DNA of 64,000 bases from a virus (Duplodnaviria > Caudoviricetes). The stretch is from IMG/VR virus record IMGVR_UViG_3300028797_000005, positions 59,247 through 123,246 of that record; one strand, given 5' to 3'. The translations under genes and the position numbers were made by a program. The notes under the pieces were generated by a model, which searched no databases, was not told the DNA's origin, and saw only the letters and a list, made by a program, of their open reading frames with translations. Shown in pieces: positions 54,584 to 63,541 of this stretch. The first letter of the stretch is position 1. Each line of letters opens with the position of its first letter.

Positions 54584-54598
54584 AATTTTCAGAAAATT
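54584..54598. promoter_or_regulatory. Perfect CodY consensus box
   Basis: AATTTTCAGAAAATT. Confidence 0.65.
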
Positions 54599-54684
54599 CC
54601 TAAAAATCCTACAAACCACCCCGGGACCCCTGTCCTGCATAAAAATACAAAAGCCCGAAATTCAATACATTTTTACAAGCTATC

Positions 54685-54712
54685 AAAGGCGGTGAAGAAA
54701 TTCACCGCCTTT
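54685..54712. terminator. GCGGTG..CACCGC hairpin terminator
   Basis: AAAGGCGGTGAA-GAAA-TTCACCGCCTTT between convergent genes. Confidence 0.75.
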
Positions 54713-54722
54713 CTTTTTTTAG

Positions 54723-54905
54723 TTATTCAAGAGCAAGCAGGTCTTCGAAGAAGTAAATCTTTGCTCCCATGCTAACTCTTTCTTCAACCTCTTCATTCAA
54801 GAGGTTCCAGCCGTCAACATCACAAGGAATACCATCGTAAAACACGATATCAATACCATTCATAACTTTTTCCAATTCATTCCAGATTCTCATTTCAGCG
54901 TCCAT
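54723..54905 (-). CDS. Small acidic hypothetical protein
   Basis: RBS, promoter TTGACA-17-TATACT at 54960-54988. Confidence 0.7.
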   Translation of the reverse strand: MDAEMRIWNELEKVMNGIDIVFYDGIPCDVDGWNLLNEEVEERVSMGAKIYFFEDLLALE

Positions 54906-55080
54906 TTTCCGACTCCTCTCTCCATAAAAACGGATTGCCCTCTTTTTTCTTACAATATAAGTATAACATGACCGGATAAGATTGTCAAGTCACTATTTTA
55001 TTTTTTAATTAAAATATAATAATATTATTGTAAACCGGGTATGGACCGATTGGAAGGGGCAGGCCGTCCCTAGCCGGTAG

Positions 55081-55104
55081 AATTGTCAGAACATTCTGAT
55101 TAAA
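55081..55104. repeat. CodY-operator-like element (single)
   Basis: AATTGTCAGAACATTCTGATTAAA. Confidence 0.7.
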
Positions 55105-55122
55105 GACAGAAAGAAAAAATGA

Positions 55123-55142
55123 GCGGTGATTTTCATCACCGC
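55123..55142 (-). terminator. GCGGTG..CACCGC terminator
   Basis: GCGGTGAT-TTTC-ATCACCGC with T-tract on - strand. Confidence 0.7.
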
Positions 55143-55150
55143 CCTCTTCA

Positions 55151-55315
55151 TCACGCCTCAGCATACCGCATTTCCAGCAGTTCGGCGATGGAGTACAGGC
55201 GCACATCGCACCAGTCCTCGTCTTCATACGCCTCGCACAGACGAGCAAATTCAATGGTTTCTTCGGCTTCCAAGCCATACAGACGCGCAACGCGGGCAAG
55301 CAGTTCTTCTCTCAT
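55151..55315 (-). CDS. 54-aa acidic protein MREELLARVARLYGLEAEETIEF... (not in ORF track)
   Basis: GAAAGGAG RBS, own promoter and terminator. Confidence 0.75.
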   Translation of the reverse strand: MREELLARVARLYGLEAEETIEFARLCEAYEDEDWCDVRLYSIAELLEMRYAEA

Positions 55316-55445
55316 CGTGAATCTCCTTTCAACTCACTCACTCTTTATCTTGACTAAAGTATATCATACTTCGCCGGCCTTGTCAATAGGTAAAATGAAA
55401 AAAATATATTTTCTACGCGGAATTAAAAAAGAAAGGTTAAAAGAT

Positions 55446-55504
55446 AATTGTCAAACTATTCTGACTTCGCGGCGGGCCGCCATTGTCAGAACATTCTGAT
55501 AAGG
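55446..55504. repeat. CodY-operator-like pair, 35-bp period
   Basis: Cores at 55448 and 55483 around GC linker. Confidence 0.8.
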
Positions 55505-55545
55505 TAGGATAAAAAAATAAAGTAGTGAAATTATTCACTACTTTT

Positions 55546-55720
55546 TTGAACAAGAGTTTGCATAAGGGAATCGAACCCTTCTCTCCTGGGCTAATTACGC
55601 GGCGTGTGTGCTCCAGCCTACCTATGCCTTATCTCATTCGAGAGTCTGCATATAGGAATCGAACCTATCCTCTCCGCAACCAGGCGTTGCACCATGTTAC
55701 TGATGCCTTATCTTGTTCAA
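55546..55720 (-). ncRNA. Tandem tRNA-like (T-arm) RNA, two units
   Basis: Two GGTTCGATTCC arms with covarying stems, shared flanks, 10-bp closing stem, promoter and terminator, no credible ORF. Confidence 0.65.
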
Positions 55721-55726
55721 GTCGGC

Positions 55727-55792
55727 TTTAGTAGTGCTTGCTCTTGACTGCTTGCTACCAAGGAGGTGGGAAGCCGTTCCCTTTCCTCTTGC
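55727..55792 (-). ncRNA. Two-hairpin sRNA/leader, copy 1
   Basis: AAGAGGAAAGGG..CCCACCTCCT.GGTAG..CTACTAAA, conserved with 57540-57597. Confidence 0.55.
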
Positions 55793-55866
55793 AAGTATAT
55801 ATTAACACAAACGAGACTATATGTCAAGTGTTTTATAAAAAATTTTCTAGAATTTTTTTCAGAGAT

Positions 55867-55890
55867 ATTTGTCAAAATATTCTAATAATT
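55867..55890. repeat. CodY-operator-like element (single)
   Basis: ATTTGTCAAAATATTCTAATAATT. Confidence 0.6.
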
Positions 55891-55932
55891 CGCCACGGAA
55901 AAAATGGGCGGTGCTTCTGCACCGCTTTTACT

Positions 55933-56097
55933 TTAGAAGATGGATTCAAGAGTGCCTTCGCTATCAAACTCGAAAACCGTATCTTCTCCGCCATCGGATT
56001 CAACTTCGAGGTAGTAGCCGCCATCTTCTCTTCTGCGGTCTACTACGATTCTTCCAGTTCTTCTCATCACGGTTCTAATCATTCTGTAATCGGTCAT
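55933..56097 (-). CDS. 54-aa hypothetical protein
   Basis: Start MTDYRM after GAGG; terminator 55908-55925. Confidence 0.7.
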   Translation of the reverse strand: MTDYRMIRTVMRRTGRIVVDRRREDGGYYLEVESDGGEDTVFEFDSEGTLESIF

Positions 56098-56197
56098 TTT
56101 CTTTTCCTCTCTTTCTTTTAGGCTTTTGCCTCTCTCTTTCTTACAATGTAAGTATAACACACCTTGCCGGTCTTGTCAACACTTTTTATAAAAAAAT

Positions 56198-56221
56198 TAA
56201 AGTTAAAATATTCTGACAATT
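56198..56221. repeat. CodY-operator-like element (single)
   Basis: ..AAAATATTCTGACAATT followed by GC linker. Confidence 0.6.
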
Positions 56222-56263
56222 TGCCGCGGGCCAAAAATCGGCGCCGTTTTTCGACACCATCCT

Positions 56264-56494
56264 CTACTCGATTACGACATCTTCAACTCTTACGATTCTC
56301 AAGATTCCCTCGTATTCAAGGACGATTCTCCAGTACATTACGCCCTCTTCATCTGCTTCCTCTGCGGTGCTTCCGTGCGCCACTACCATATTCTGTCTAA
56401 AGGTCGGATAGCCTTGCACTACTGCGGCGTATCTTGCGCTTGCGTCTTCTTGCATCTTTCTAACCATTAGGTTGTCAATTACTCTCCATTCCAT
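56264..56494 (-). CDS. Hypothetical protein
   Basis: AAAGGAG RBS, own promoter. Confidence 0.7.
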   Translation of the reverse strand: MEWRVIDNLMVRKMQEDASARYAAVVQGYPTFRQNMVVAHGSTAEEADEEGVMYWRIVLEYEGILRIVRVEDVVIE

Positions 56495-56601
56495 TTTCGT
56501 TTTCTCCTTTCCTTATCTTCAATTAGATTATAGCATAGCCGGACGGCGTTGTCAATAGATTTTTAATAAAAAAATGCGGTGACTTTTGTCACCGCTTCGA
56601 T

Positions 56602-57108
56602 TTACTTGATAGGATTTTCGGCGATATAGGCTTCGTACTCGGCAAGCTCTTTTTCTGCTTTCGCAAGTGCTTCTGCAAGGTTTTCAACCGCTTCTCTCAT
56701 CTTTTTTAATTTGCGGTTTCTGTTTCTCAAGTGTTTGTATTCTTCAATACTCAAGCCTTCTTTTTCGGCTTTCGCTTTCAGCCGTTCAGCGTTCTGCGCT
56801 TTTCTTTCAGCCTTTTCCTTTTCTTTTCGTTCTTTCCACTCTTTGAAAGTTTCGGAATGTTTCGGAATGACGCAGACTTCTGCGTGAATATCCTCGTTGA
56901 AATACCACTTTTGAGTAATTGCGACCGCTTCGGCTTCCATCTTGCTATCGAAGAAGTAAAGGTCATTCGTTATATCGGGCATACCCGACCAAGCATCATC
57001 ATAACCGCTTTCACGGTATCCATATTCACAGTAGTATCTGTACCCTTTTTCATACATTTCATTGAGCAGTTCGGCGTTTGCAATTCTTGTGGCGACCAGT
57101 TCCTTCAT
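56602..57108 (-). CDS. Hypothetical protein with C-terminal coiled coil
   Basis: RBS, own promoter, terminator 56576-56595. Confidence 0.75.
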   Translation of the reverse strand: MKELVATRIANAELLNEMYEKGYRYYCEYGYRESGYDDAWSGMPDITNDLYFFDSKMEAEAVAITQKWYFNEDIHAEVCVIPKHSETFKEWKERKEKEKAERKAQNAERLKAKAEKEGLSIEEYKHLRNRNRKLKKMREAVENLAEALAKAEKELAEYEAYIAENPIK

Positions 57109-57259
57109 TTTCTTTTCTCCTCTCTTTATCTCTCCTTATCTTGACTAAAGTATATCATAATTTTACCGGTCTGTCAAGCATAAAATTAAAAAAATTTTTT
57201 ATTTTTTCCTCTTAACAAAAATGCCGTCGGCATGATATAATGGACTGGGACGCTAAAAT

Positions 57260-57283
57260 TGTTTTCAAAATATTCTGATAATT
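57260..57283. repeat. CodY-operator-like element (single)
   Basis: TGTTTTCAAAATATTCTGATAATT. Confidence 0.6.
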
Positions 57284-57324
57284 TACCACGGCGGGAAATG
57301 GCGGTGCTTCCACACCACCTTTTT

Positions 57325-57450
57325 CTATTCGGGAATGATTCGAACGATTTTCCCGTGCTTGCTTTCAAGCACTCGCCGTTCCTGAACGCTCATTCCGTAG
57401 AGCCAAACTTCGTATCCGTCTTCGAAAATGTACCAAGCACTTCTCTTCAT
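57325..57450 (-). CDS. 41-aa hypothetical protein
   Basis: Start MKRSAW; own promoter, hairpin 57300-57319. Confidence 0.65.
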   Translation of the reverse strand: MKRSAWYIFEDGYEVWLYGMSVQERRVLESKHGKIVRIIPE

Positions 57451-57539
57451 TTTTCTTTCCTCTCTTTCCTTATCTCTGTCTTGATTATACAGGATAACTT
57501 TGCTTTTGTCAAGCACTTTTTTAATTTTTTCGGAAGATT

Positions 57540-57597
57540 TTTAGTAGCGTTTTGTCTACCGAGGAGGTGGGATTTCTTCCTAACCCTTTCCTCTTAC
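57540..57597 (-). ncRNA. Two-hairpin sRNA, copy 2
   Basis: Same promoter and stems as 55727-55792 with different loops; no ORF. Confidence 0.55.
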
Positions 57598-57662
57598 AAG
57601 TATATATTAACACAAGCCGGTCTATATGTCAAGCACTTTTTTCAACTTTTTTTCGATTTTTT

Positions 57663-57748
57663 TATTGTCGAAATATTCTGACAATTCGACAGGGTAGCAC
57701 TCGCTTCGCAGCTTTTTCCTATTGCCGCAATTTTCTGACAATTCGACA
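57663..57748. repeat. Two CodY-like elements with three 0A-box heptamers
   Basis: Cores at 57665 and 57722; TGTCGAA 57666, TTCGACA 57685 and 57742. Confidence 0.65.
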
Positions 57749-57790
57749 GGGTGAGAAAAAACGGCGGTGATTTTCTTCACCGCCTTGATT

Positions 57791-58057
57791 TTAGGCGTGA
57801 TGGATTTTTCCATCAATTACATAGATAACCGATTCAAAGCCATCGTATTCGTCAATTTCCCAATCGGTCGCCTCGTCAGGAATTTCTATAACTTCCAACT
57901 CGGAATAACCACCGCCAGCATCTTCTCCGTACTTCTCAACCAGTTCAACCAGTTGAGCATCAGAACGGTCTACCGACCATTCGTCAATTCCATACTGTTC
58001 TGCAAGTTCCTTATCAAGACCAAAACCGCCATAGCATTTATTAAGTACAATCTTCAT
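57791..58057 (-). CDS. Acidic phage hypothetical protein
   Basis: KIVLNKCYGGFGL...EYDGFE; own promoter, terminator 57763-57784. Confidence 0.8.
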   Translation of the reverse strand: MKIVLNKCYGGFGLDKELAEQYGIDEWSVDRSDAQLVELVEKYGEDAGGGYSELEVIEIPDEATDWEIDEYDGFESVIYVIDGKIHHA

Positions 58058-58173
58058 TTTCTTTTCTCCTCTCTTGTTCTCTCTGATATTATATTATCAC
58101 ATCTTCATTCTATTGTCAACAGTTTTTTTCGGCAACGGCGATTTTTTTCGCCGTTGCCTTCGTTAAAACTTTG

Positions 58174-58275
58174 TCAATCTTCTACCAGTAGGCACTCGTT
58201 GATATAAACAGCGCAAGCGAGATTTTCCACAGTGTAGTCAATTTCCGAAAAGAATCCAATCGTAACCAGTTCCAT
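58174..58275 (-). CDS. 33-aa peptide MELVTIGFFSEIDYTVENLACAVYINECLLVED
   Basis: GAGGAG RBS, own promoter, hairpin 58131-58158. Confidence 0.6.
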   Translation of the reverse strand: MELVTIGFFSEIDYTVENLACAVYINECLLVED

Positions 58276-58463
58276 AATTTTATCTCCTCTCTTTATCTTG
58301 ATTAAAGTATACCACAATTCTCCGGCATTGTCAACACTTTTTTATTAAAAAATTTTTTTATTTTTTTATGAAAAAACACTTGACAAGCCAACGGCATTAT
58401 GTTATTATAATAGTGGGAAGTGGAGTGGACACCGAGGACGCAAACACTCGGGCAGCAATTTTT

Positions 58464-58592
58464 TATTTTCAGAATATTCTGACAATGACGGGCGGTGTAA
58501 TTGTCAGAATATTCTGATGGTTGTGGGCGGCATAATTATCAGAATATTCTGTTAAAAGTAGGCGGCCAAATTGTCAGAATATTCTGAATCTT
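58464..58592. repeat. Four CodY-operator-like elements at exact 35-bp period
   Basis: AGAATATTCT at 58471, 58506, 58541, 58576; GGCGG at 58491, 58526, 58561. Confidence 0.9.
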
Positions 58593-58636
58593 GCAAGATG
58601 CAAGACTTTAATGTAATGAAGCGCTAAAGCGATGAA

Positions 58637-58732
58637 GTTAGTCGCGACTAACCGGAGTTAGTCCGGACTAACCTGGGTTAGCCTGCTGCAACCTGAGTTA
58701 GCCTGCTGCAACCTGAGTTAGCCTGGTCTAAT
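58637..58732. repeat. 5 x 20-bp tandem array of GTTAG-N6-CTAAC-like palindromes
   Basis: GTTAG at 58637, 58657, 58677, 58697, 58717. Confidence 0.9.
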
Positions 58733-58734
58733 CT

Positions 58735-58772
58735 CCTGCATATTTATGCAGACTCCTGCATATTATGCAAGC
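58735..58772. repeat. Tandem ARG-box-like palindromes
   Basis: TGCATATTTATGCA at 58737 and TGCATATTATGCA at 58757. Confidence 0.6.
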
Positions 58773-58882
58773 TGTCCGAAAAATGGGACTGGCAATAATT
58801 GGTAGAAAAAATTGCGAAAAAGTGTTGACAAACAAGCCGGCATTTGTTATAATTAGTACAGAGTTAAGGAAGGAGATACCTA

Positions 58883-59356
58883 ATGAAAACTACACTTTGC
58901 AACCTTTACACCAAACACGCCTACTGCCACAACTATATTTTCGGTTATGTAGAAAACGGCAAGGTTTACGCCGCTTACACCACCGCCGCCGCCCTGCCTG
59001 CCGTTGTAAAACTTGACAGAGCAAGCCGCGGAAACGGCTACTCAATCCGCTTTAAGGGCGGCTACGATGAAGTCGAGCAGCTGAAAAAGTCGGCTCTGAA
59101 AATTGAATACATCTGCTCCGAGGAATTCCTCGAACAGGTCGCCGAGGAAGTCAGCACAGGCAGAAAAAACAGAGGTTCGGCTTTTGAAAAAATCCTCACC
59201 GAAAAAGTCGGACAGGTCTGGAAAAAGGATAGCGTACCGTTTACGGAAGCTCCCGACCTCGTAATTGACGGAATCGGTTATCAAATCAAATACAAGGGCG
59301 CGACCTTTGCGAATGAAGCCCAGTTGAACAGACTGGAAGCCAAGGCGGAAGCCTAA
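58883..59356 (+). CDS. Hypothetical protein, possible PD-(D/E)xK nuclease fold
   Basis: RGSAFE...APDLVIDGIGYQIK. Confidence 0.55.
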   Translation: MKTTLCNLYTKHAYCHNYIFGYVENGKVYAAYTTAAALPAVVKLDRASRGNGYSIRFKGGYDEVEQLKKSALKIEYICSEEFLEQVAEEVSTGRKNRGSAFEKILTEKVGQVWKKDSVPFTEAPDLVIDGIGYQIKYKGATFANEAQLNRLEAKAEA

Positions 59357-59492
59357 GGCTTCCGGTCCGGACCGGCCGGGCCTGCCTCCGAAGCGGATCC
59401 GGCCCGCTTGTTAAAAAAATAACTTGCAAGCTGGAGCTTGACAAGCTACGAAAGCTGTGCTATAATAAAGCTGAAGTTAAGGAGAGAAAGAG

Positions 59493-59681
59493 ATGCAACT
59501 GAACAAAATAATGAAAGCCTTTCGGCACAATCAACCTGTAAAAATTGTATACCCTGACGGACATGGCGTGTTAACCTGTCGCAGAAGCGTTGAGACCTAC
59601 GCCGCAGTGTGGTACTATGATGTTCTGCGTGTGGAAGCTGAAGCCAAGCCACCTGTCATCTACTTGAGAAAGGAGCAGTGA
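59493..59681 (+). CDS. Hypothetical protein
   Basis: AAGGAG RBS, promoter 59438. Confidence 0.65.
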   Translation: MQLNKIMKAFRHNQPVKIVYPDGHGVLTCRRSVETYAAVWYYDVLRVEAEAKPPVIYLRKEQ

Positions 59682-59682
59682 A

Positions 59683-59895
59683 ATGTTTAACATTTGGACA
59701 CAAGATATTCTTGAAGCTCTTGCGGTGTTGAAAGAGAAATGCCCCAACAGACTTTTAGTGAATTGTATTGGCGGAAATTATTATGGTGATGTCCTCATCA
59801 AAACCGAAGATGCACACTTTACTTACAAGGTAAAGGAAAAAGAATTGTATATCTACATCGGCACTTGGAAACAAGGCCATTGGGAAAAACTGTAA
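59683..59895 (+). CDS. Hypothetical protein
   Basis: AAAGGAG RBS; terminator-like hairpin 59911-59940. Confidence 0.7.
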   Translation: MFNIWTQDILEALAVLKEKCPNRLLVNCIGGNYYGDVLIKTEDAHFTYKVKEKELYIYIGTWKQGHWEKL

Positions 59896-59951
59896 TCTCC
59901 TCTCTCTTGAAAAATGCGGTCTCCTCTCACGCATTTTTTTCTTGCAAAAAT

Positions 59952-60010
59952 AATTGTCCGAATATTCTGACAATTGCGCCGGCCGCCGTTTTCAGAAAAT
60001 TCAGGCAGAA
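59952..60010. repeat. CodY-operator-like pair, 35-bp period
   Basis: Cores at 59954 and 59989. Confidence 0.8.
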
Positions 60011-60085
60011 AAATTTTCCCAAAATAATACTTGACAAGGTATCCCGAATATAGTATACTATATATAGAGAAAGTGAGGAAATAAA

Positions 60086-60526
60086 ATGGATAAAAATATT
60101 TGGTTTGATATGGACGGAACTTTTGTAGACTTGTACGGAGTAGAAAATTGGTTGGAAAAATTACACAATTTTGATGCAAGTCCTTATAAAGATGCTAAAC
60201 CGCTTGTGCATTTCCCAACATTCGCAAAGACTTTGAATAGACTTTACAGGGAAGGTTGGAATATCAACATTGTTTCGTGGTGTGCAAGAGGTTCTTCCGA
60301 AAAATATGACGAGGAAGTAACGAAAGAAAAATTACAGTATATTTCTAAACATCTTCCGAGTGTAAAATTTAATGAAATAAAAATCCTTAAATATGGTACT
60401 CCAAAAAGTACAGTAGGAACAGGCGTTCTTTTTGATGATGAACAGAAGAACAGGGACGAGTGGAAAGGTATTGCTTGCTCTGAAAAAAATTTGCTGAAAA
60501 AATTGAATTGCCTATTGACAAGGTAA
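60086..60526 (+). CDS. HAD-superfamily 5'(3')-deoxyribonucleotidase-like protein
   Basis: WFDMDGT motif I, IVS, K, VLFDD. Confidence 0.75.
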   Translation: MDKNIWFDMDGTFVDLYGVENWLEKLHNFDASPYKDAKPLVHFPTFAKTLNRLYREGWNINIVSWCARGSSEKYDEEVTKEKLQYISKHLPSVKFNEIKILKYGTPKSTVGTGVLFDDEQKNRDEWKGIACSEKNLLKKLNCLLTR

Positions 60527-60566
60527 GGAAAGTGTGATATAATCCTAAATGTAAGGAGAGATAAAA

Positions 60567-60728
60567 ATGAAAAAGAAAGTAGAAAAAATCGGTGTCATTT
60601 CAGGCATTGACTTAATAAAGAAAACTAATCCCAAAATTGATATACCTTTCAGAACAGGCGGTCATTCCACGAAAAAGGATAGACCAAGAGAAAAGGTAAG
60701 CAGACATAATATTGATAAATACCTTTAA
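60567..60728 (+). CDS. 53-aa basic protein (not in ORF track)
   Basis: AAGGAG RBS, promoter 60515; MKKKVEKIG...FRTGGHSTKKDRPREK. Confidence 0.7.
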   Translation: MKKKVEKIGVISGIDLIKKTNPKIDIPFRTGGHSTKKDRPREKVSRHNIDKYL

Positions 60729-60752
60729 TTCGGTTTCCTCCTCTCTAAACGA

Positions 60753-60811
60753 AGTCGTCAGAATTGTCTGACGATTTCGCCGGCCGCCGTTTTCAGAATA
60801 TTTAAACTTTA
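60753..60811. repeat. CodY-operator-like pair, 35-bp period
   Basis: Cores at 60755 and 60790. Confidence 0.75.
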
Positions 60812-60987
60812 ATTTTTTAAGAAAAAAGTGTTGACAAATATAATCCCATATGCTATACTAATAATGTCAAGGGGAGAGAGAAAACAACCTCTCACAGACG
60901 CGTAATCTGTTGTAAGTAAAATAAAATCTCCTCAAAAAAATGTAAAAACCCCTTGACAAACGGCACCGAGTGTGCTACAATATAATC

Positions 60988-61180
60988 AAGGTGAGGATAG
61001 GCAAAGCCGAGATGGTGCGACTCAACTGAGTCAGTAAGACCGATTCCGATGACCCTTACCGCATGGAGTCCTGTTGTGCGGTATATAAATGTGAACCAAG
61101 CGCTAAGAACGCAACCCACGCCGCCAAGGTGGCGCAGCCGTTGGAAAGGGGACGGCAGGACACGGCAACTCCTCTCTTTA
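60988..61180 (+). ncRNA. Structured ~190-nt RNA upstream of tRNA
   Basis: Own promoter, several GC-rich hairpins, no + strand ORF. Confidence 0.5.
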
Positions 61181-61184
61181 ATAA

Positions 61185-61258
61185 GGTTGAGTGGTATAAC
61201 GGAAGAACAACGCACTGTTAATGCGTAGATGAGGGTTCGACTCCCTCTTCAACCTCCA
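61185..61258 (+). tRNA. tRNA-Asn(GTT), CCA encoded
   Basis: Acceptor GGTTGAG/TTCAACC, anticodon arm ACGCA-CTGTTAA-TGCGT, T arm GAGGG-TTCGACT-CCCTC. Confidence 0.9.
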
Positions 61259-61265
61259 CAAATCA

Positions 61266-61324
61266 AGTTGTCAGATAATTCTGACAACTTGGGCCGGCGG
61301 CATTATCAGAATATTCTGAATATA
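61266..61324. repeat. CodY-operator-like pair, 35-bp period
   Basis: Cores at 61268 and 61303. Confidence 0.8.
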
Positions 61325-61411
61325 AATTCTGATAAAAATAATGCTTGACATTCTTATCCTAATATAGTATAATCTTATTGTCAAATGGTAAGGATTGAAA
61401 GGAGAAAACTT

Positions 61412-61609
61412 ATGTGGACGACTTATTGGTTTGAAATCGTTGGTGAAGATAGTGAAATTTGCGGTGAAGAATTTTTCACTGAATTGGAAAATGCAACGAA
61501 AGAACAGCATATCGCATATGCGCACGAAATTTTCCCTAATGAAAAGATAGTCTGTTGGGGAAAGGTAACGCAAATGGAAGCTGAAATGATGGGCTTGGAT
61601 ACTTATTAG
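61412..61609 (+). CDS. Small acidic hypothetical protein
   Basis: Start MWTTYWFE after AAAGGAG. Confidence 0.75.
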   Translation: MWTTYWFEIVGEDSEICGEEFFTELENATKEQHIAYAHEIFPNEKIVCWGKVTQMEAEMMGLDTY

Positions 61610-61624
61610 AAAGGTGGTATAAAT

Positions 61625-61702
61625 ATGACTTGGGAAAAAGACCAAATTATTATCGTAGTAATGAGTTTTGTAGGTTTATTCATTTATGCGTGTATGAGGT
61701 GA
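61625..61702 (+). CDS. 25-aa hydrophobic peptide MTWEKDQIIIVVMSFVGLFIYACMR
   Basis: AAAGGTGG RBS; single TM-like stretch. Confidence 0.5.
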   Translation: MTWEKDQIIIVVMSFVGLFIYACMR

Positions 61703-61707
61703 AAGCA

Positions 61708-61766
61708 AGTTGTCAGAATTATCTGACAACTTTGCCGGCCGCCGTTTTCAGAATATTCAGAATAAT
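61708..61766. repeat. CodY-operator-like pair, 35-bp period
   Basis: Cores at 61710 and 61745. Confidence 0.8.
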
Positions 61767-61981
61767 TTTAATATTCCGCGTTTTAATTTAACGCTTGACT
61801 TTCGACCAAAATTTTGCTATAATCTTATTGTCAAGGGTTGAGAGTGGCAACGGCAAGCGAGCCGCTCTCGAAAAAAAATTAAAAAAAAGTTTTAAAAACC
61901 TCTTGACAGAATCGAAAAATTATGTTATACTTAACTCGTAAGTTAAGAGAGAGCCGAAAGGCAAGAAAGGAAAGGTTCATT

Positions 61982-62287
61982 ATGACCAAGAGAGAAATGT
62001 TTGAAGCTATCGTCAATGGTAACATCACTGAGGAAGTCATCGCTATGGCTCAGAAAGAGCTGAATCGTGGAGCGGAAGCTCGTGCGGCTAAGACGGCTGA
62101 ACAGAACGAAACCGATACTGCGGTTATCGATGCGCTCGAACAGGCTACTGCTTATGTTCCTGCGTCTGAAATCGCTGAAACTGCGGGTCTGACCGTGGGT
62201 AAGGTAACGGCTTCTCTGAAGCGTCTGCGTGTGGCTGAAAAGGTGCTTGTCATCGAGGGTAAGCCTAACACTTACAAGCTTGCGTAG
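61982..62287 (+). CDS. Winged-HTH DNA-binding protein
   Basis: ASEIAETAGLTVGKVTASLKRL...GKPNTYKL; terminator 62307-62340. Confidence 0.7.
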   Translation: MTKREMFEAIVNGNITEEVIAMAQKELNRGAEARAAKTAEQNETDTAVIDALEQATAYVPASEIAETAGLTVGKVTASLKRLRVAEKVLVIEGKPNTYKLA

Positions 62288-62348
62288 TCAAGGCTTGTAG
62301 CCAACGGCAGTGGTGAAGAAATTCACCACTGCTATTTTTTTGATTTTA

Positions 62349-62407
62349 AATTGTCAGAATATTCTGACAATTCGGGCCGGCCAAATAGTCAGAAAATTCT
62401 GACTATT
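62349..62407. repeat. CodY-operator-like pair, 35-bp period
   Basis: AATTGTCAGAATATTCTGACAATT-CGGGCCGGCCA-AATAGTCAGAAAATTCTGACTATT. Confidence 0.85.
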
Positions 62408-62597
62408 ATCTTTCAAATCGCCAAAGAAACATCATATCATCTTGCCAAGCATACGCCAAAGTATTTTCTTCTGCGACCATTCTGTTATACTCGGCTTGTT
62501 CTGCCAAAGAGCGTTCATAGTCAAGGATAGATTCCTCGCTGACCTCTTCATCTTCCTCAAAGTACTGGAGCATTTTTTCCCATTCTCGTTTAGTCAT
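62406..62597 (-). CDS. Small acidic hypothetical protein
   Basis: AAGGTGAG RBS, coupled to upstream gene. Confidence 0.7.
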   Translation of the reverse strand: MTKREWEKMLQYFEEDEEVSEESILDYERSLAEQAEYNRMVAEENTLAYAWQDDMMFLWRFER

Positions 62598-62769
62598 ACA
62601 AACTCACCTTCTTCTTGATACCAATAATCTCATAGTCCTTTTCCAAGAACACTTCGTCAAGGATATACTTTGCATCTTCGTAAGCGTGCTTGACGGAGCA
62701 AGAGCGGACTTCAAAGATGCCGACATAATCGTCTTGTGCTACATAGTAAGTAATATCATAGTCCCACAT
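62590..62769 (-). CDS. Small acidic hypothetical protein
   Basis: Start MWDYDI after AAAGGAG; promoter TTGACA-17-TATCAT 62792-62820. Confidence 0.7.
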   Translation of the reverse strand: MWDYDITYYVAQDDYVGIFEVRSCSVKHAYEDAKYILDEVFLEKDYEIIGIKKKVSLYD

Positions 62770-62829
62770 AATCTTATCTCCTTTCGTTATTATGATAACA
62801 CAAATATAAGCCTTTGTCAAGTATCAAAA

Positions 62830-62882
62830 TAAAGTTTAAATTTTCTGACAATTCGCGCCGGCGCTTGTTAAAAAAATAACAC
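62830..62882. repeat. CodY-like element + GC linker + Rex-like box
   Basis: ..AATTTTCTGACAATT-CGCGCCGGCGC-TTGTTAAAAAAATAACAC. Confidence 0.6.
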
Positions 62883-62938
62883 TTGACAGGGATTTTGACT
62901 TGTGCTATAATTAGACTATCAAAGGAAAGGAGAAGAAA

Positions 62939-63178
62939 ATGAAAGAGTTATTTAAGATTTACGAGCCATTCAGACTTGAATACAATGACTTGCGTGCGGT
63001 CATTACTGTTATCAATGTTATCTTGATTATGATTTATGGGTTGTCTATTGCTTGGTTTGGTCTTGCTGTTGCTATTATCGGTATTGTTAAAGACTTAACA
63101 GTTGACAGACATATCAACGGTCTGGTAATGCACTTGGCGAACGCCGCTTTGAACATTTATTTTATCACGCTTATTTGA
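62939..63178 (+). CDS. Small membrane protein
   Basis: Hydrophobic segments, RBS, promoter 62883. Confidence 0.7.
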   Translation: MKELFKIYEPFRLEYNDLRAVITVINVILIMIYGLSIAWFGLAVAIIGIVKDLTVDRHINGLVMHLANAALNIYFITLI

Positions 63179-63189
63179 AAGGAGTTATT

Positions 63190-63474
63190 ATGCGTATTGT
63201 TATTTACATTTATTTAGGATTATCTGCTATTATTCTTTTTATGGGATATTTAGAAGCATATCTTTGTGTTTCTGCACTCAAAAAGAAATATCCTAATGCG
63301 AAAAAAATTAATTGTAATAATAAGGGGCTTGCTACCTTATTGTCAGTAATGAAAACTTTAATGATTAGTTTTTTCCCTGTTATTAATCTTGCATTTTTGT
63401 TTTATTTATTACTTTACCCACAAGAATATGATGAAGCTTGTGAGCAAGCTTTTCTCAAATATAACAGAATCTAA
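63190..63474 (+). CDS. Small two-TM membrane protein
   Basis: AAAGGAG RBS before ATG 63190; FFPVINL. Confidence 0.7.
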   Translation: MRIVIYIYLGLSAIILFMGYLEAYLCVSALKKKYPNAKKINCNNKGLATLLSVMKTLMISFFPVINLAFLFYLLLYPQEYDEACEQAFLKYNRI

Positions 63475-63482
63475 TAAAAACA

Positions 63483-63541
63483 AATTGTCGGAATTGTCCG
63501 ACAATTTGGCCGGCGCCAATTTTCAGAATATTCAGAAAATT
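63483..63541. repeat. CodY-operator-like pair, 35-bp period
   Basis: Second element AATTTTCAGAATATTCAGAAAATT = two 1-mismatch CodY boxes overlapping by 6 bp. Confidence 0.85.

Follow-up and report, generated by a model that had tools for sequence, protein, structure and literature searches.

The early region of this phage carries, in many copies, a short DNA element that resembles the operator of the host regulator CodY, which raises the questions of what protein binds the element and what the repeated copies do. Within the window, by which we mean the whole 64,000-nucleotide stretch analysed, CodY-like 24-mers begin at 25 sites (55081, 55446/55481, 55867, 56198, 57260, 57663, 57720, 58464/58499/58534/58569, 59952/59987, 60753/60788, 61266/61301, 61708/61743, 62349/62384, 62830 and 63483/63518), each 2 nt ahead of a previously listed 20-bp core. 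All of the 25 elements reported in an earlier note on this DNA are present where that note placed them. The seven pairs and one quadruplet with an exact 35-bp period were recovered when positions were rechecked, as was a perfect 15-nt CodY consensus (0 mismatches) at 54584. The count for the window stands, but the array is longer than had been stated. The contig is circular (end overlap of 127 bp), and beyond the junction the array continues at genome positions 329-2560 with three further pairs and one degenerate copy. The whole early-region array amounts to about 33-35 elements in 11.9 kb of a 123-kb genome.

The early region was scanned for the motif against shuffled controls. It contains 25 CodY-consensus 15-mers with two or fewer mismatches, whereas Markov shuffles of the same region average 0.27 and never exceed 2. 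The other 111 kb of the genome contain 4 such 15-mers, an enrichment of approximately 58-fold over the remaining genome. The 24-mer consensus gave 8 matches at three or fewer mismatches and none in 100 shuffles, and 24 of the 25 cores found genome-wide at two or fewer mismatches lie inside this region.

Functional CodY sites usually carry up to 3-5 mismatches to the 15-nt consensus. Each of the 25 24-mers contains a box with three or fewer mismatches, and 19 contain one with two or fewer; the best 24-mer is identical to the 24-nt CodY double consensus at 23 of 24 positions, and one 15-mer is perfect. The core-to-core offset is exactly 9 bp in all copies, which corresponds to two 15-nt boxes overlapping by 6 nt. 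CodY binds such 24-nt sites cooperatively as two dimers; one or two extra base pairs lower its affinity, and cooperativity is gone by 2 bp (Hainzl 2023, PMC10415144). Positions T6, T15 and T15' are hydrogen-bonded and almost completely conserved in CodY sites (PMC10415144). In this phage T6, A10 (which pairs with T15' in the Hainzl numbering) and T15 are each invariant in 30/30 copies, a figure to be read in light of the copies having been gathered by core similarity, and all three are among the best-conserved positions in the relatives G001-G004. The dyad centres (positions 8 and 17, written W) rank with the least conserved positions of the core in five phages and vary independently of one another, with A/T free there; the CAG/CTG interchange described earlier is present in some copies. 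On our reading, the central GAATATTC, one mismatch away from each of the two overlapping boxes, may be a symmetric compromise between them.

The deviations from consensus also have counterparts among bacterial sites. Variants G5, T12 and C20 occur in natural CodY sites, mapped or predicted, and in Bacillus subtilis braB the third motif of the strong CodY site II matches the phage unit at 14/15 positions (PMC4608796). Predicted boxes of Streptococcus salivarius genes that are derepressed in a codY mutant are identical to the unit at 14-15/15 positions, and the thrC box is an exact match, the sole occurrence of that 15-mer in the 8 million papers searched. In the literature searched, nothing connected CodY boxes with the early regions of phages. 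The resemblance to CodY sites noted earlier is thus upheld in consensus, register, invariant positions, free dyad centres and natural counterparts, with CodY itself a candidate for the binder.

The element unit is also arrayed in five distantly related uncultured phages (G001-G005; core genes 25-50% identical in amino acid sequence), as well as in cultured Bastillevirinae (Evoli, P59) and Sextaecvirus, whose hosts are Bacillus, Cytobacillus and Mammaliicoccus. The Bacillus hosts include the B. cereus group. In G001 the consensus agrees with the CodY double site at 23/24 positions; runs of 3-5 cores in exact 9-bp phase occur in G001 and G004, and G002 and G003 have 23-25 elements within 5-10 kb of largely promoter-free DNA. 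The flanks of the 15-nt unit share nothing between unrelated phage families.

It is fairly unlikely, in our estimate, that the element is instead the operator of a phage-encoded or other host protein whose specificity resembles that of CodY, analogous to the SPbeta element and its repressor MrpR. Repeated intergenic operators for a phage regulator have that precedent (PMC10516654), and among the products of the early region are some 20 small proteins of no recognisable family and two winged-helix paralogues. A small, fast-evolving phage protein of CodY-like specificity is conceivable, and the preference for G5/C20 and the lineage-specific GC-rich block, which adjoins every element in this lineage outside the CodY box, go beyond the canonical box. 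Against such a binder, the G5, T12 and C20 variants are known from natural CodY sites, and the 15-nt unit recurs in the rumen phages, Evoli, P59 and F1, although no early protein common to their array regions was found (small proteins could escape such detection). Just one DNA-binding fold is recognisable in the region, that of a 101-aa winged-helix protein on the plus strand (61982-62287; HTH_24, E 1.2e-4) with a paralogue at genome positions 622-936. This protein, which the earlier note had named as an alternative binder, has no homologue in the five array-bearing relatives at E up to 10 and is absent from 50,697 cultured phage records. No conserved phage DNA-binding partner of the element, of the kind known for SPBRE and MrpR, was found in G001-G005 or the cultured phages. 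Because the same specificity occurs across families that have no shared early gene, a conserved host protein is the easier explanation, and CodY is the best available candidate.

None of the phages examined encodes a CodY domain. The putative host is a Gram-positive gut or rumen bacterium, probably of the phylum Bacillota to judge from terminase relatives, sigma-A promoters and a CWB2 endolysin. A CodY helix-turn-helix is present in four of five genomes tested (all four Lachnospiraceae; a Faecousia MAG is without it), but only about 68 of 301 sampled Clostridia genomes (~23%) give a strong match, which counts against the CodY reading.

The placement of the elements bears on what a bound protein could do. 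The earlier note had the sites lying upstream of -35 elements rather than on them. They do lie off the promoters, with no overlap with a strong -35 or -10 among the elements of the early region, but they are better described as locked behind terminator hairpins. The hairpin-to-element gap is 12-18 nt in 7/8 cases in this phage, and is 9-17 nt in G001, G002/G003, G004, G005, P59 and F1, a cross-lineage spacing that rests on few cases. The perfect single box (54584-54598) lies between the stop of a 540-aa gene and that gene's terminator (54685-54712). Past minus-strand terminators are single elements at 55081-55104 (16 nt past 55121-55144), 55867-55890 (17 nt past 55908-55925) and 56198-56221 (17 nt past 56239-56259), and a 35-bp pair with a GC-rich linker at 55446-55504 (14 nt past 55519-55544). 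The 55867 element, of family D3, consists of one good box and a GC-rich flank, and the centre of the 56198 element is ~65 nt upstream of the start predicted for minus-strand promoter 56179. Another single element (57260-57283) is just past a minus-strand terminator and at about +23 downstream of plus-strand promoter 57212. Two singles of family D4, 57 bp apart (57663 and 57720; 57663-57743), follow, the first in the direction of transcription being 19 nt past minus-strand terminator 57763-57784. The quadruplet, with its exact 35-bp period (58464-58592), occupies a transcribed non-coding tract downstream of promoter 58380; further repeat arrays come after it. The single element at 62830-62853, a 1-mismatch box with a GC-rich flank, is located between divergent promoters 62820 (minus strand) and 62883 (plus strand). 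Only promoters 57212 and 58380 fire into elements, a placement unlike that of CodY-style promoter control; a roadblock mode would need no promoter overlap.

The remaining elements are pairs, and some of these form hairpins themselves. The plus-strand pair at 59952-60010 begins 18 nt after terminator hairpin 59915-59933, its proximal centre ~67 nt upstream of the start predicted for promoter 60031. The pair at 62349-62407 lies between convergent genes, as had been noted and as the gene layout bears out; its first element is a perfect 24-bp palindrome 15 nt after terminator 62306-62333, and its second, a palindrome with a symmetric change, adjoins the stop of the minus-strand gene. Four plus-strand elements without a separate upstream terminator have extended stems of 11-13 bp. 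In the pair at 60753-60811, the first element folds as a 13-bp RNA hairpin (MFE -22.9 kcal/mol, z -3.4) and shows a symmetric T-to-C/A-to-G change, and the second is CodY-like. Directly after tRNA-Asn (61185-61258), the pair at 61266-61324 again opens with a 13-bp hairpin with symmetric changes (z -5.6), and the pair at 61708-61766, directly after a small ORF, has a first element forming a hairpin with symmetric changes and a second comprising two direct-orientation cores. The pair at 63483-63541 comes immediately after the stop of a gene; its first element forms an 11-bp hairpin and shows a symmetric A-to-G/T-to-C change, and its second is the 24-mer identical at 23/24 positions to the CodY double consensus. 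Symmetric compensatory changes occur in 5/5 elements without a separate upstream terminator and in 0/5 with one, and are explained by a second role as RNA 3' hairpins. The first elements fold strongly (z -3.2 to -5.6) but differ from intrinsic terminators, in which a GC-rich hairpin is followed directly by a U tract: they are 11-13-bp AU-rich hairpins followed by 0-3 U and then the GC-rich linker, and two are terminator-like by score on the opposite strand only. Elements that have diverged to hairpins match CodY more weakly (5-6 mismatches of 24). Second elements of pairs are often non-palindromic, with cores in direct orientation and the core strictly conserved.

Spacing locked behind terminator hairpins points to a roadblock or insulator role, a possibility that the earlier note had not raised. 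In the model that we tentatively prefer, while giving it somewhat less than an even chance, the elements would be high-affinity CodY-type double operators, each expected to hold one host CodY dimer on each of its two overlapping boxes. They lie 11-18 nt beyond an RNA hairpin at almost all junctions between the small early-gene cassettes, the hairpin being an ordinary terminator or, where that is absent, the first element of the pair. The bound protein would act as a roadblock, stalling RNA polymerase just past the hairpin; this would make termination firm and keep read-through away from the next consensus promoter. Insulation of the cassettes would be set by CodY occupancy, and hence by the branched-chain amino acid and GTP status of the host. 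CodY as the binder and the roadblock effect are both inferred, from the observed sequence match, geometry, placement and cross-lineage conservation. A more far-reaching version, to which we give rather little credence, is that large virulent Bacillota phages make conditional terminators or insulators out of host CodY sites, each a hairpin with a CodY double operator 11-18 nt on, that would stop polymerase only in a well-fed host; how far read-through crosses the early cassettes, and with it the infection programme, would follow host nutrient status, and amplified arrays in relatives may also drain CodY from the host regulon.

CodY might also bind to other effect, as the earlier note proposed, and all of the evidence on the binder applies to such readings. 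The array could be a sponge that titrates CodY upon replication, derepressing host amino-acid and peptide supply, or a sensor that tunes early promoters from about -66 or -76; we regard this as unlikely. The promoter-poor arrays of G002 and G003 suit a sponge better than a junction device, but a sponge leaves unexplained both the tight spacing behind hairpins and the hairpin evolution of terminator-less elements. With regard to a sensor, proximal centres in this phage fall into clusters 30.5-32.5 or 40.5-42.5 nt ahead of the -35 hexamer, and a Rayleigh test at a 10.5-bp period (p = 0.0065, n = 20) suggests face-of-helix coupling to promoters. This p value is soft because several periods were tested; moreover, the early promoters are near-consensus and need no activator, and the promoter distances are not conserved in relatives and may reflect duplicated cassettes.

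Duplication could also bear on the spacing behind hairpins: since the terminators are a repeat family in their own right (D17), their constant distance to the elements could be inherited from duplicated junction modules. In T4-type phages, promoter-stem-loop cassettes have spread by duplication. That the elements here bind no sequence-specific protein, and are only structural parts (RNA 3' hairpins, homology patches for cassette shuffling) of mobile terminator-to-promoter cassettes likewise spread by duplication, would agree with the repetition of whole junction modules (families D1-D6 and D17), with the strong, compensated hairpins of first elements and with one gene cassette that is inverted yet element-bounded, but is very improbable given the conserved cores of non-palindromic second elements, a 15-nt unit common to unrelated phage families with unlike flanks, and 9-bp-phased runs of 3-5 cores that make no sense as hairpins.

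Compared with the 24-nt overlapping CodY operators of Bacillota (PMC10415144, PMC4608796), the phage elements are alike in consensus (21/24 matches here and 23/24 in G001), in the exact 9-bp register, invariant T6/A10/T15 and free A/T at the dyad centres, and in deviations that recur in braB site II and streptococcal boxes. They differ in number, some 35 copies being packed into 12 kb of a phage that looks virulent, as against one or a few per host promoter; in placement, behind terminators and upstream of -35 whereas host sites lie over or just downstream of promoters; and in their 35-bp pairing with a GC-rich linker. Roadblock repression by CodY is reportedly a published mechanism, credited to Belitsky and Sonenshein (2011, J Mol Biol 411:729). 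There, as the model presented here would need, CodY sitting within a transcription unit reportedly halts RNA polymerase during elongation, but the known sites lie within a host gene or leader and lack a systematic pairing with terminator hairpins at junctions. The placement behind terminator hairpins and the hairpin-forming first elements are new here, and a terminator made of hairpin plus roadblock, under the control of a repressor that senses metabolites, would, if true, be a new regulatory device.

Among phage systems, the SPbeta repeated element (SPBRE) likewise recurs, as a 15-bp sequence, between many genes of a large Bacillus phage, and was first found by sequence alone, its binder, the phage master repressor MrpR, being assigned only decades later (PMC10516654). 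That binder is phage-encoded and the phage is temperate, whereas the present element is common to unrelated phage families and the search for a conserved binder among their proteins found none. As the unit recurs in cultured phages of the Bacillus cereus group, Cytobacillus and Mammaliicoccus, the CodY idea is testable with existing strains. The virulent Bacillus phages phi29 and Nf carry Spo0A boxes on their genomes (PMC2731898), and in both cases sites for a host global regulator (putative here) lie in the early region of a lytic phage, through which development follows, or here would follow, host state. In phi29 and Nf the sites are few, 7-nt 0A boxes overlapping promoters and origins, with repression shown; the present case involves a different putative regulator, a large array and terminator-locked placement. 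If CodY does bind, Spo0A and phi29 would gain a second and much more extensive counterpart: a lytic phage that ties its early programme to a global regulator of its host, in this instance the main nutrient sensor of Gram-positive bacteria.

The array of 24-bp elements described in the earlier note is confirmed: every element it lists was recovered, as were its seven pairs and its quadruplet, all with the exact 35-bp spacing. The window takes up the final 64 kb of the contig (IMGVR_UViG_3300028797_000005; 123,246 bp), whose ends share a 127-bp overlap, giving a circular genome of 123,119 bp; the record is classified as complete by IMG/VR. The elements lie within an 11.9-kb region (window 54.5-64 kb joined to genome 1-2.6 kb) of very small genes on both strands, where terminators are numerous and about 28 sigma-A promoters are close to consensus. 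Past the window end, three further pairs (genome 329, 995 and 1951) and a degenerate copy near genome 2500 were found. At two mismatches or fewer, the core occurs 25 times genome-wide, and 24 of these 25 occurrences are inside the 11.9-kb region. In keeping with the claim that the elements resemble CodY operators, 15-mers within two mismatches of the CodY consensus number 25 in this region versus four in the remaining 111 kb, and Markov shuffles of the region gave 0.27. No Rfam family matched the element.

Other repeats accompany the array. Right behind the quadruplet, at 58605-58760, are five 20-bp GTTAG-N6-CTAAC dyad units (family D7) followed by TGCATA palindromes; the dyad units share the quadruplet's transcribed non-coding tract, downstream of the 58380 promoter. 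On the minus strand at 55546-55720, two tandem tRNA-like units with T-arm sequences, called by neither ARAGORN nor Rfam, stand behind a strong promoter, and a duplicate (family D15) of a similar promoter and leader occupies 57584-57663. At the genome start just beyond the last element (fetched locus L097:2560-3100), about 0.5 kb of non-coding DNA contains many CAGCTGC copies and two TTGACA-type promoter boxes. Possible roles for this tract are an origin, a packaging region and a further operator array.

Against the published 24-nt CodY double site, in which two 15-nt boxes share 6 nt, the 24-mer consensus departs at three positions (5, 12 and 20), and element positions 6, 10 and 15 are invariant (30/30). 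T15 and its opposite-strand partner are hydrogen-bonded by both CodY dimers and are almost completely conserved, while T6 is the other base-specific CodY contact (Hainzl et al. 2023, PMC10415144). Positions 8 and 17, the dyad centres of the two boxes, are, in the five phages, some of the most weakly conserved positions of the core and vary independently of each other, a pattern that fits two putative dimers centred there rather than one dimer on a 24-bp palindrome. The core-to-core offset is 9 bp in all copies; one or two extra bp in the CodY double site lower affinity, and cooperativity is gone by two (PMC10415144). The central GAATATTC brings one mismatch into each overlapping box and is apparently the symmetric optimum for two boxes with 6 nt in common. 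The element's deviations from the CodY consensus occur in natural sites. Motif 3 in site II of B. subtilis braB, a strong CodY site, matches the phage unit at 14 of 15 bases (PMC4608796). Among the boxes predicted upstream of genes that lose repression in an S. salivarius codY mutant, about one third carry G5 or C11 by our own count, and the predicted S. salivarius thrC box is the exact phage 15-mer, its sole occurrence in the literature searched. The earlier reading of the elements as CodY operators is partly supported, by the consensus match, the 9-bp register and the invariant bases. One feature that does not fit is a block of 8-12 nt, rich in GC and often with CCGG, that adjoins every element in the present lineage and lies outside the CodY box.

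Viral contigs scanned with a 16-nt core yielded dense arrays in several records, of which five, all from uncultured relatives, were fetched. Element counts were 15 in G001, 23 in one 5-kb bin of G002, 26 in G003, 25 in G004 and 6 in G005. These relatives have only distant core genes in common with the present phage (25-50% amino acid identity). Their consensus drifts toward the canonical CodY site, to which that of G001 is identical at 23/24 positions, and runs of three to five cores at exact 9-bp phase occur in G001 and G004. Megablast of the region against cultured phages gave no match, and matches were obtained by short-word search alone. One pair used as a short-word BLAST query matched 91 records, 82 of them Bacillus phages (including the Bastillevirinae Evoli and Spock); the others were P59 (Cytobacillus), five Sextaecvirus-type phages (Mammaliicoccus or Staphylococcus), two unassigned phages and one labelled Arcanobacterium. 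A second short-word query, from G001, again matched only such phages. In Evoli and P59, the unit is arrayed in the early, terminal-repeat region. Several inter-element spacers of the P59 array (L120:4650-5100) contain AGCGG, the Bacillus subtilis Chi sequence, and the P59 linkers may carry a second signal, like the GC-rich linkers of the present phage. The record labelled Arcanobacterium phage TPWB06 (PQ358086.1; L119), inspected at its element site, is nearly identical to Mammaliicoccus sciuri Sextaecvirus phages (L121); because CodY would not be expected in Arcanobacterium, this actinobacterial host label deserves a check.

The terminase, closest to those of Geobacillus, Alicyclobacillus, Enterococcus and Bacillus phages (30-35% identity), the Bacillota sigma-A type promoters with TG extensions and the endolysin (Amidase_2 plus three CWB2 repeats) together place the host in Bacillota. 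No database record of the exact terminase protein was found, homologues of the Amidase_2 plus CWB2 endolysin are metagenome proteins, and 20 kb of DNA searched against 401 Lachnospiraceae genomes gave weak 73-87% matches only, none of them spacer-like. The CodY HTH was detected in four genomes out of five tested, each of the four being Lachnospiraceae; among 301 Clostridia genomes sampled, only about 68 had a strong match to it. On a further fetched locus (L179:11293-13173), a UvrD-type helicase that follows a GIY-YIG protein is split by an intein (Intein_splicing domain, residues 167-445).

A phage-encoded protein, or some other binder in place of CodY, is a doubtful alternative. The one DNA-binding fold recognised in the region belongs to a 101-aa winged-helix protein (61982..62287, plus strand), which has one paralogue. 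The earlier note had named it as the alternative binder, and this candidacy was weakened: searches up to E = 10 gave no homologue in G001-G005, and 50,697 cultured phage records contained none either. The remaining early ORFs matched no Pfam family, and their PHROGs matches were to families of unknown function only. Between the rumen phages on one side and the Evoli, P59 and F1 array regions on the other, no common early protein was found; a CodY domain is absent from all the phages. Since the site is kept across phage families without a common early protein, a conserved host protein would be the simpler explanation, with a small, fast-evolving phage protein still conceivable. Both winged-helix paralogues (within 61840-62287 and L097:460-936) have the same upstream order of promoter, short GC-rich hairpin RNA with terminator, second promoter and leader, and the conserved leader contains GAGCCGAAAGGCAAG.

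The 18-nt palindromic core, scanned against bacterial genomes, matched at 53 loci, none of them arrayed. Most are tips of unrelated terminator-like hairpins or belong to a few repeat families, about what chance among hairpins would give, so the scan says nothing on a native regulon. Four CodY-bearing Lachnospiraceae were searched for near-identical 24-mers, which numbered 10 in G007 and 5 in G009 (reversed control, 0) and belong to repeated palindromic elements. The five copies in G009, a rumen Lachnospiraceae MAG, lie in the loop of a long GC-rich palindrome (e.g., L186:1501-1524, L184:92-115 and L188:1501-1524) and show phage-like G5/T5, C20/A20 and CAG/CTG variation; they may be a native target of the phage elements' binder. 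One G009 24-mer sits between TusA and ThiS-ThiF sulfur-carrier genes, not in a classic CodY-regulon locus. Lachnospiraceae loci L140, L160, L163, L166, L172 and L187 (including Anthropogastromicrobium aceti, G007) hold a multi-copy element of more than 150 bp that includes a 42-bp palindrome centred on the 18-nt core. It is probably mobile, has at least seven copies in one genome and in one case adjoins Mrr-type nuclease and DUF2326 genes.

The elements are tied more tightly to hairpins than to promoters. Gaps from hairpin end to element start were obtained with a strict terminator finder and by a separate reading by hand. With the strict finder, the gap was 12-18 nt in seven of eight cases in the present phage, 14 nt in G001, 16 nt in G002/G003, 12, 15 and 15 nt in G004, 9 and 11 nt in G005, 13 and 17 nt in P59 and 13 nt in F1; by hand, it was 14-19 nt at eleven junctions of the present phage. 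The terminators themselves form a repeat family, so this constant spacing may partly be inherited. Centres of promoter-proximal elements cluster at two distances ahead of the -35 hexamer, 30.5-32.5 or 40.5-42.5 nt, which cassette duplication could produce, and these distances are not kept in the relatives; helical phasing to promoters (Rayleigh p = 0.0065 at 10.5 bp) was given no weight. Transcription from promoters 57212 and 58380 runs directly into elements, in the case of 58380 into the quadruplet.

The common layout is a hairpin, 11-18 nt and a putative protein site. We infer that the bound protein would act as a roadblock: polymerase would be held immediately beyond the hairpin, which would favour transcript release and shield the next promoter. 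The convergent pair at 62349 would block in both directions. CodY acting in this way is a credible if tentative reading. That CodY binds but the array instead acts as a sponge or sensor is unlikely. There are almost no promoters in the DNA that carries the G002 and G003 arrays, a setting easier to reconcile with a sponge than with a junction device.

Five elements have no separate upstream terminator: the first elements at 60753, 61266, 61708 and 63483, and the second member of the convergent pair (62384, in its minus-strand reading). Symmetric compensatory changes are present in all five, versus none of five first elements behind a canonical terminator, and in the four plus-strand copies the stem is lengthened to 11-13 bp. 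Because the changes are confined to terminator-less elements, these copies would also serve as the upstream transcript's 3' hairpin, which accounts for the compensatory changes that had been noted separately; the next element lies 11 nt beyond the hairpin-forming one. A purely structural role for the elements is very unlikely.

Taking the roadblock and the sponge or sensor roles together, CodY is probably the binder. No publication on CodY-like arrays in phage early regions was found in the literature searched. Among other host regulators, none of Spo0A, TnrA/GlnR, Rex/Fnr, ArgR, Lrp, the Fur family, LexA, NrdR and ScoC is known to have a site that agrees with the element in both sequence and spacing, the TnrA/GlnR site being off by one in spacing. 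Roadblocking of transcription is reportedly a published activity of CodY.
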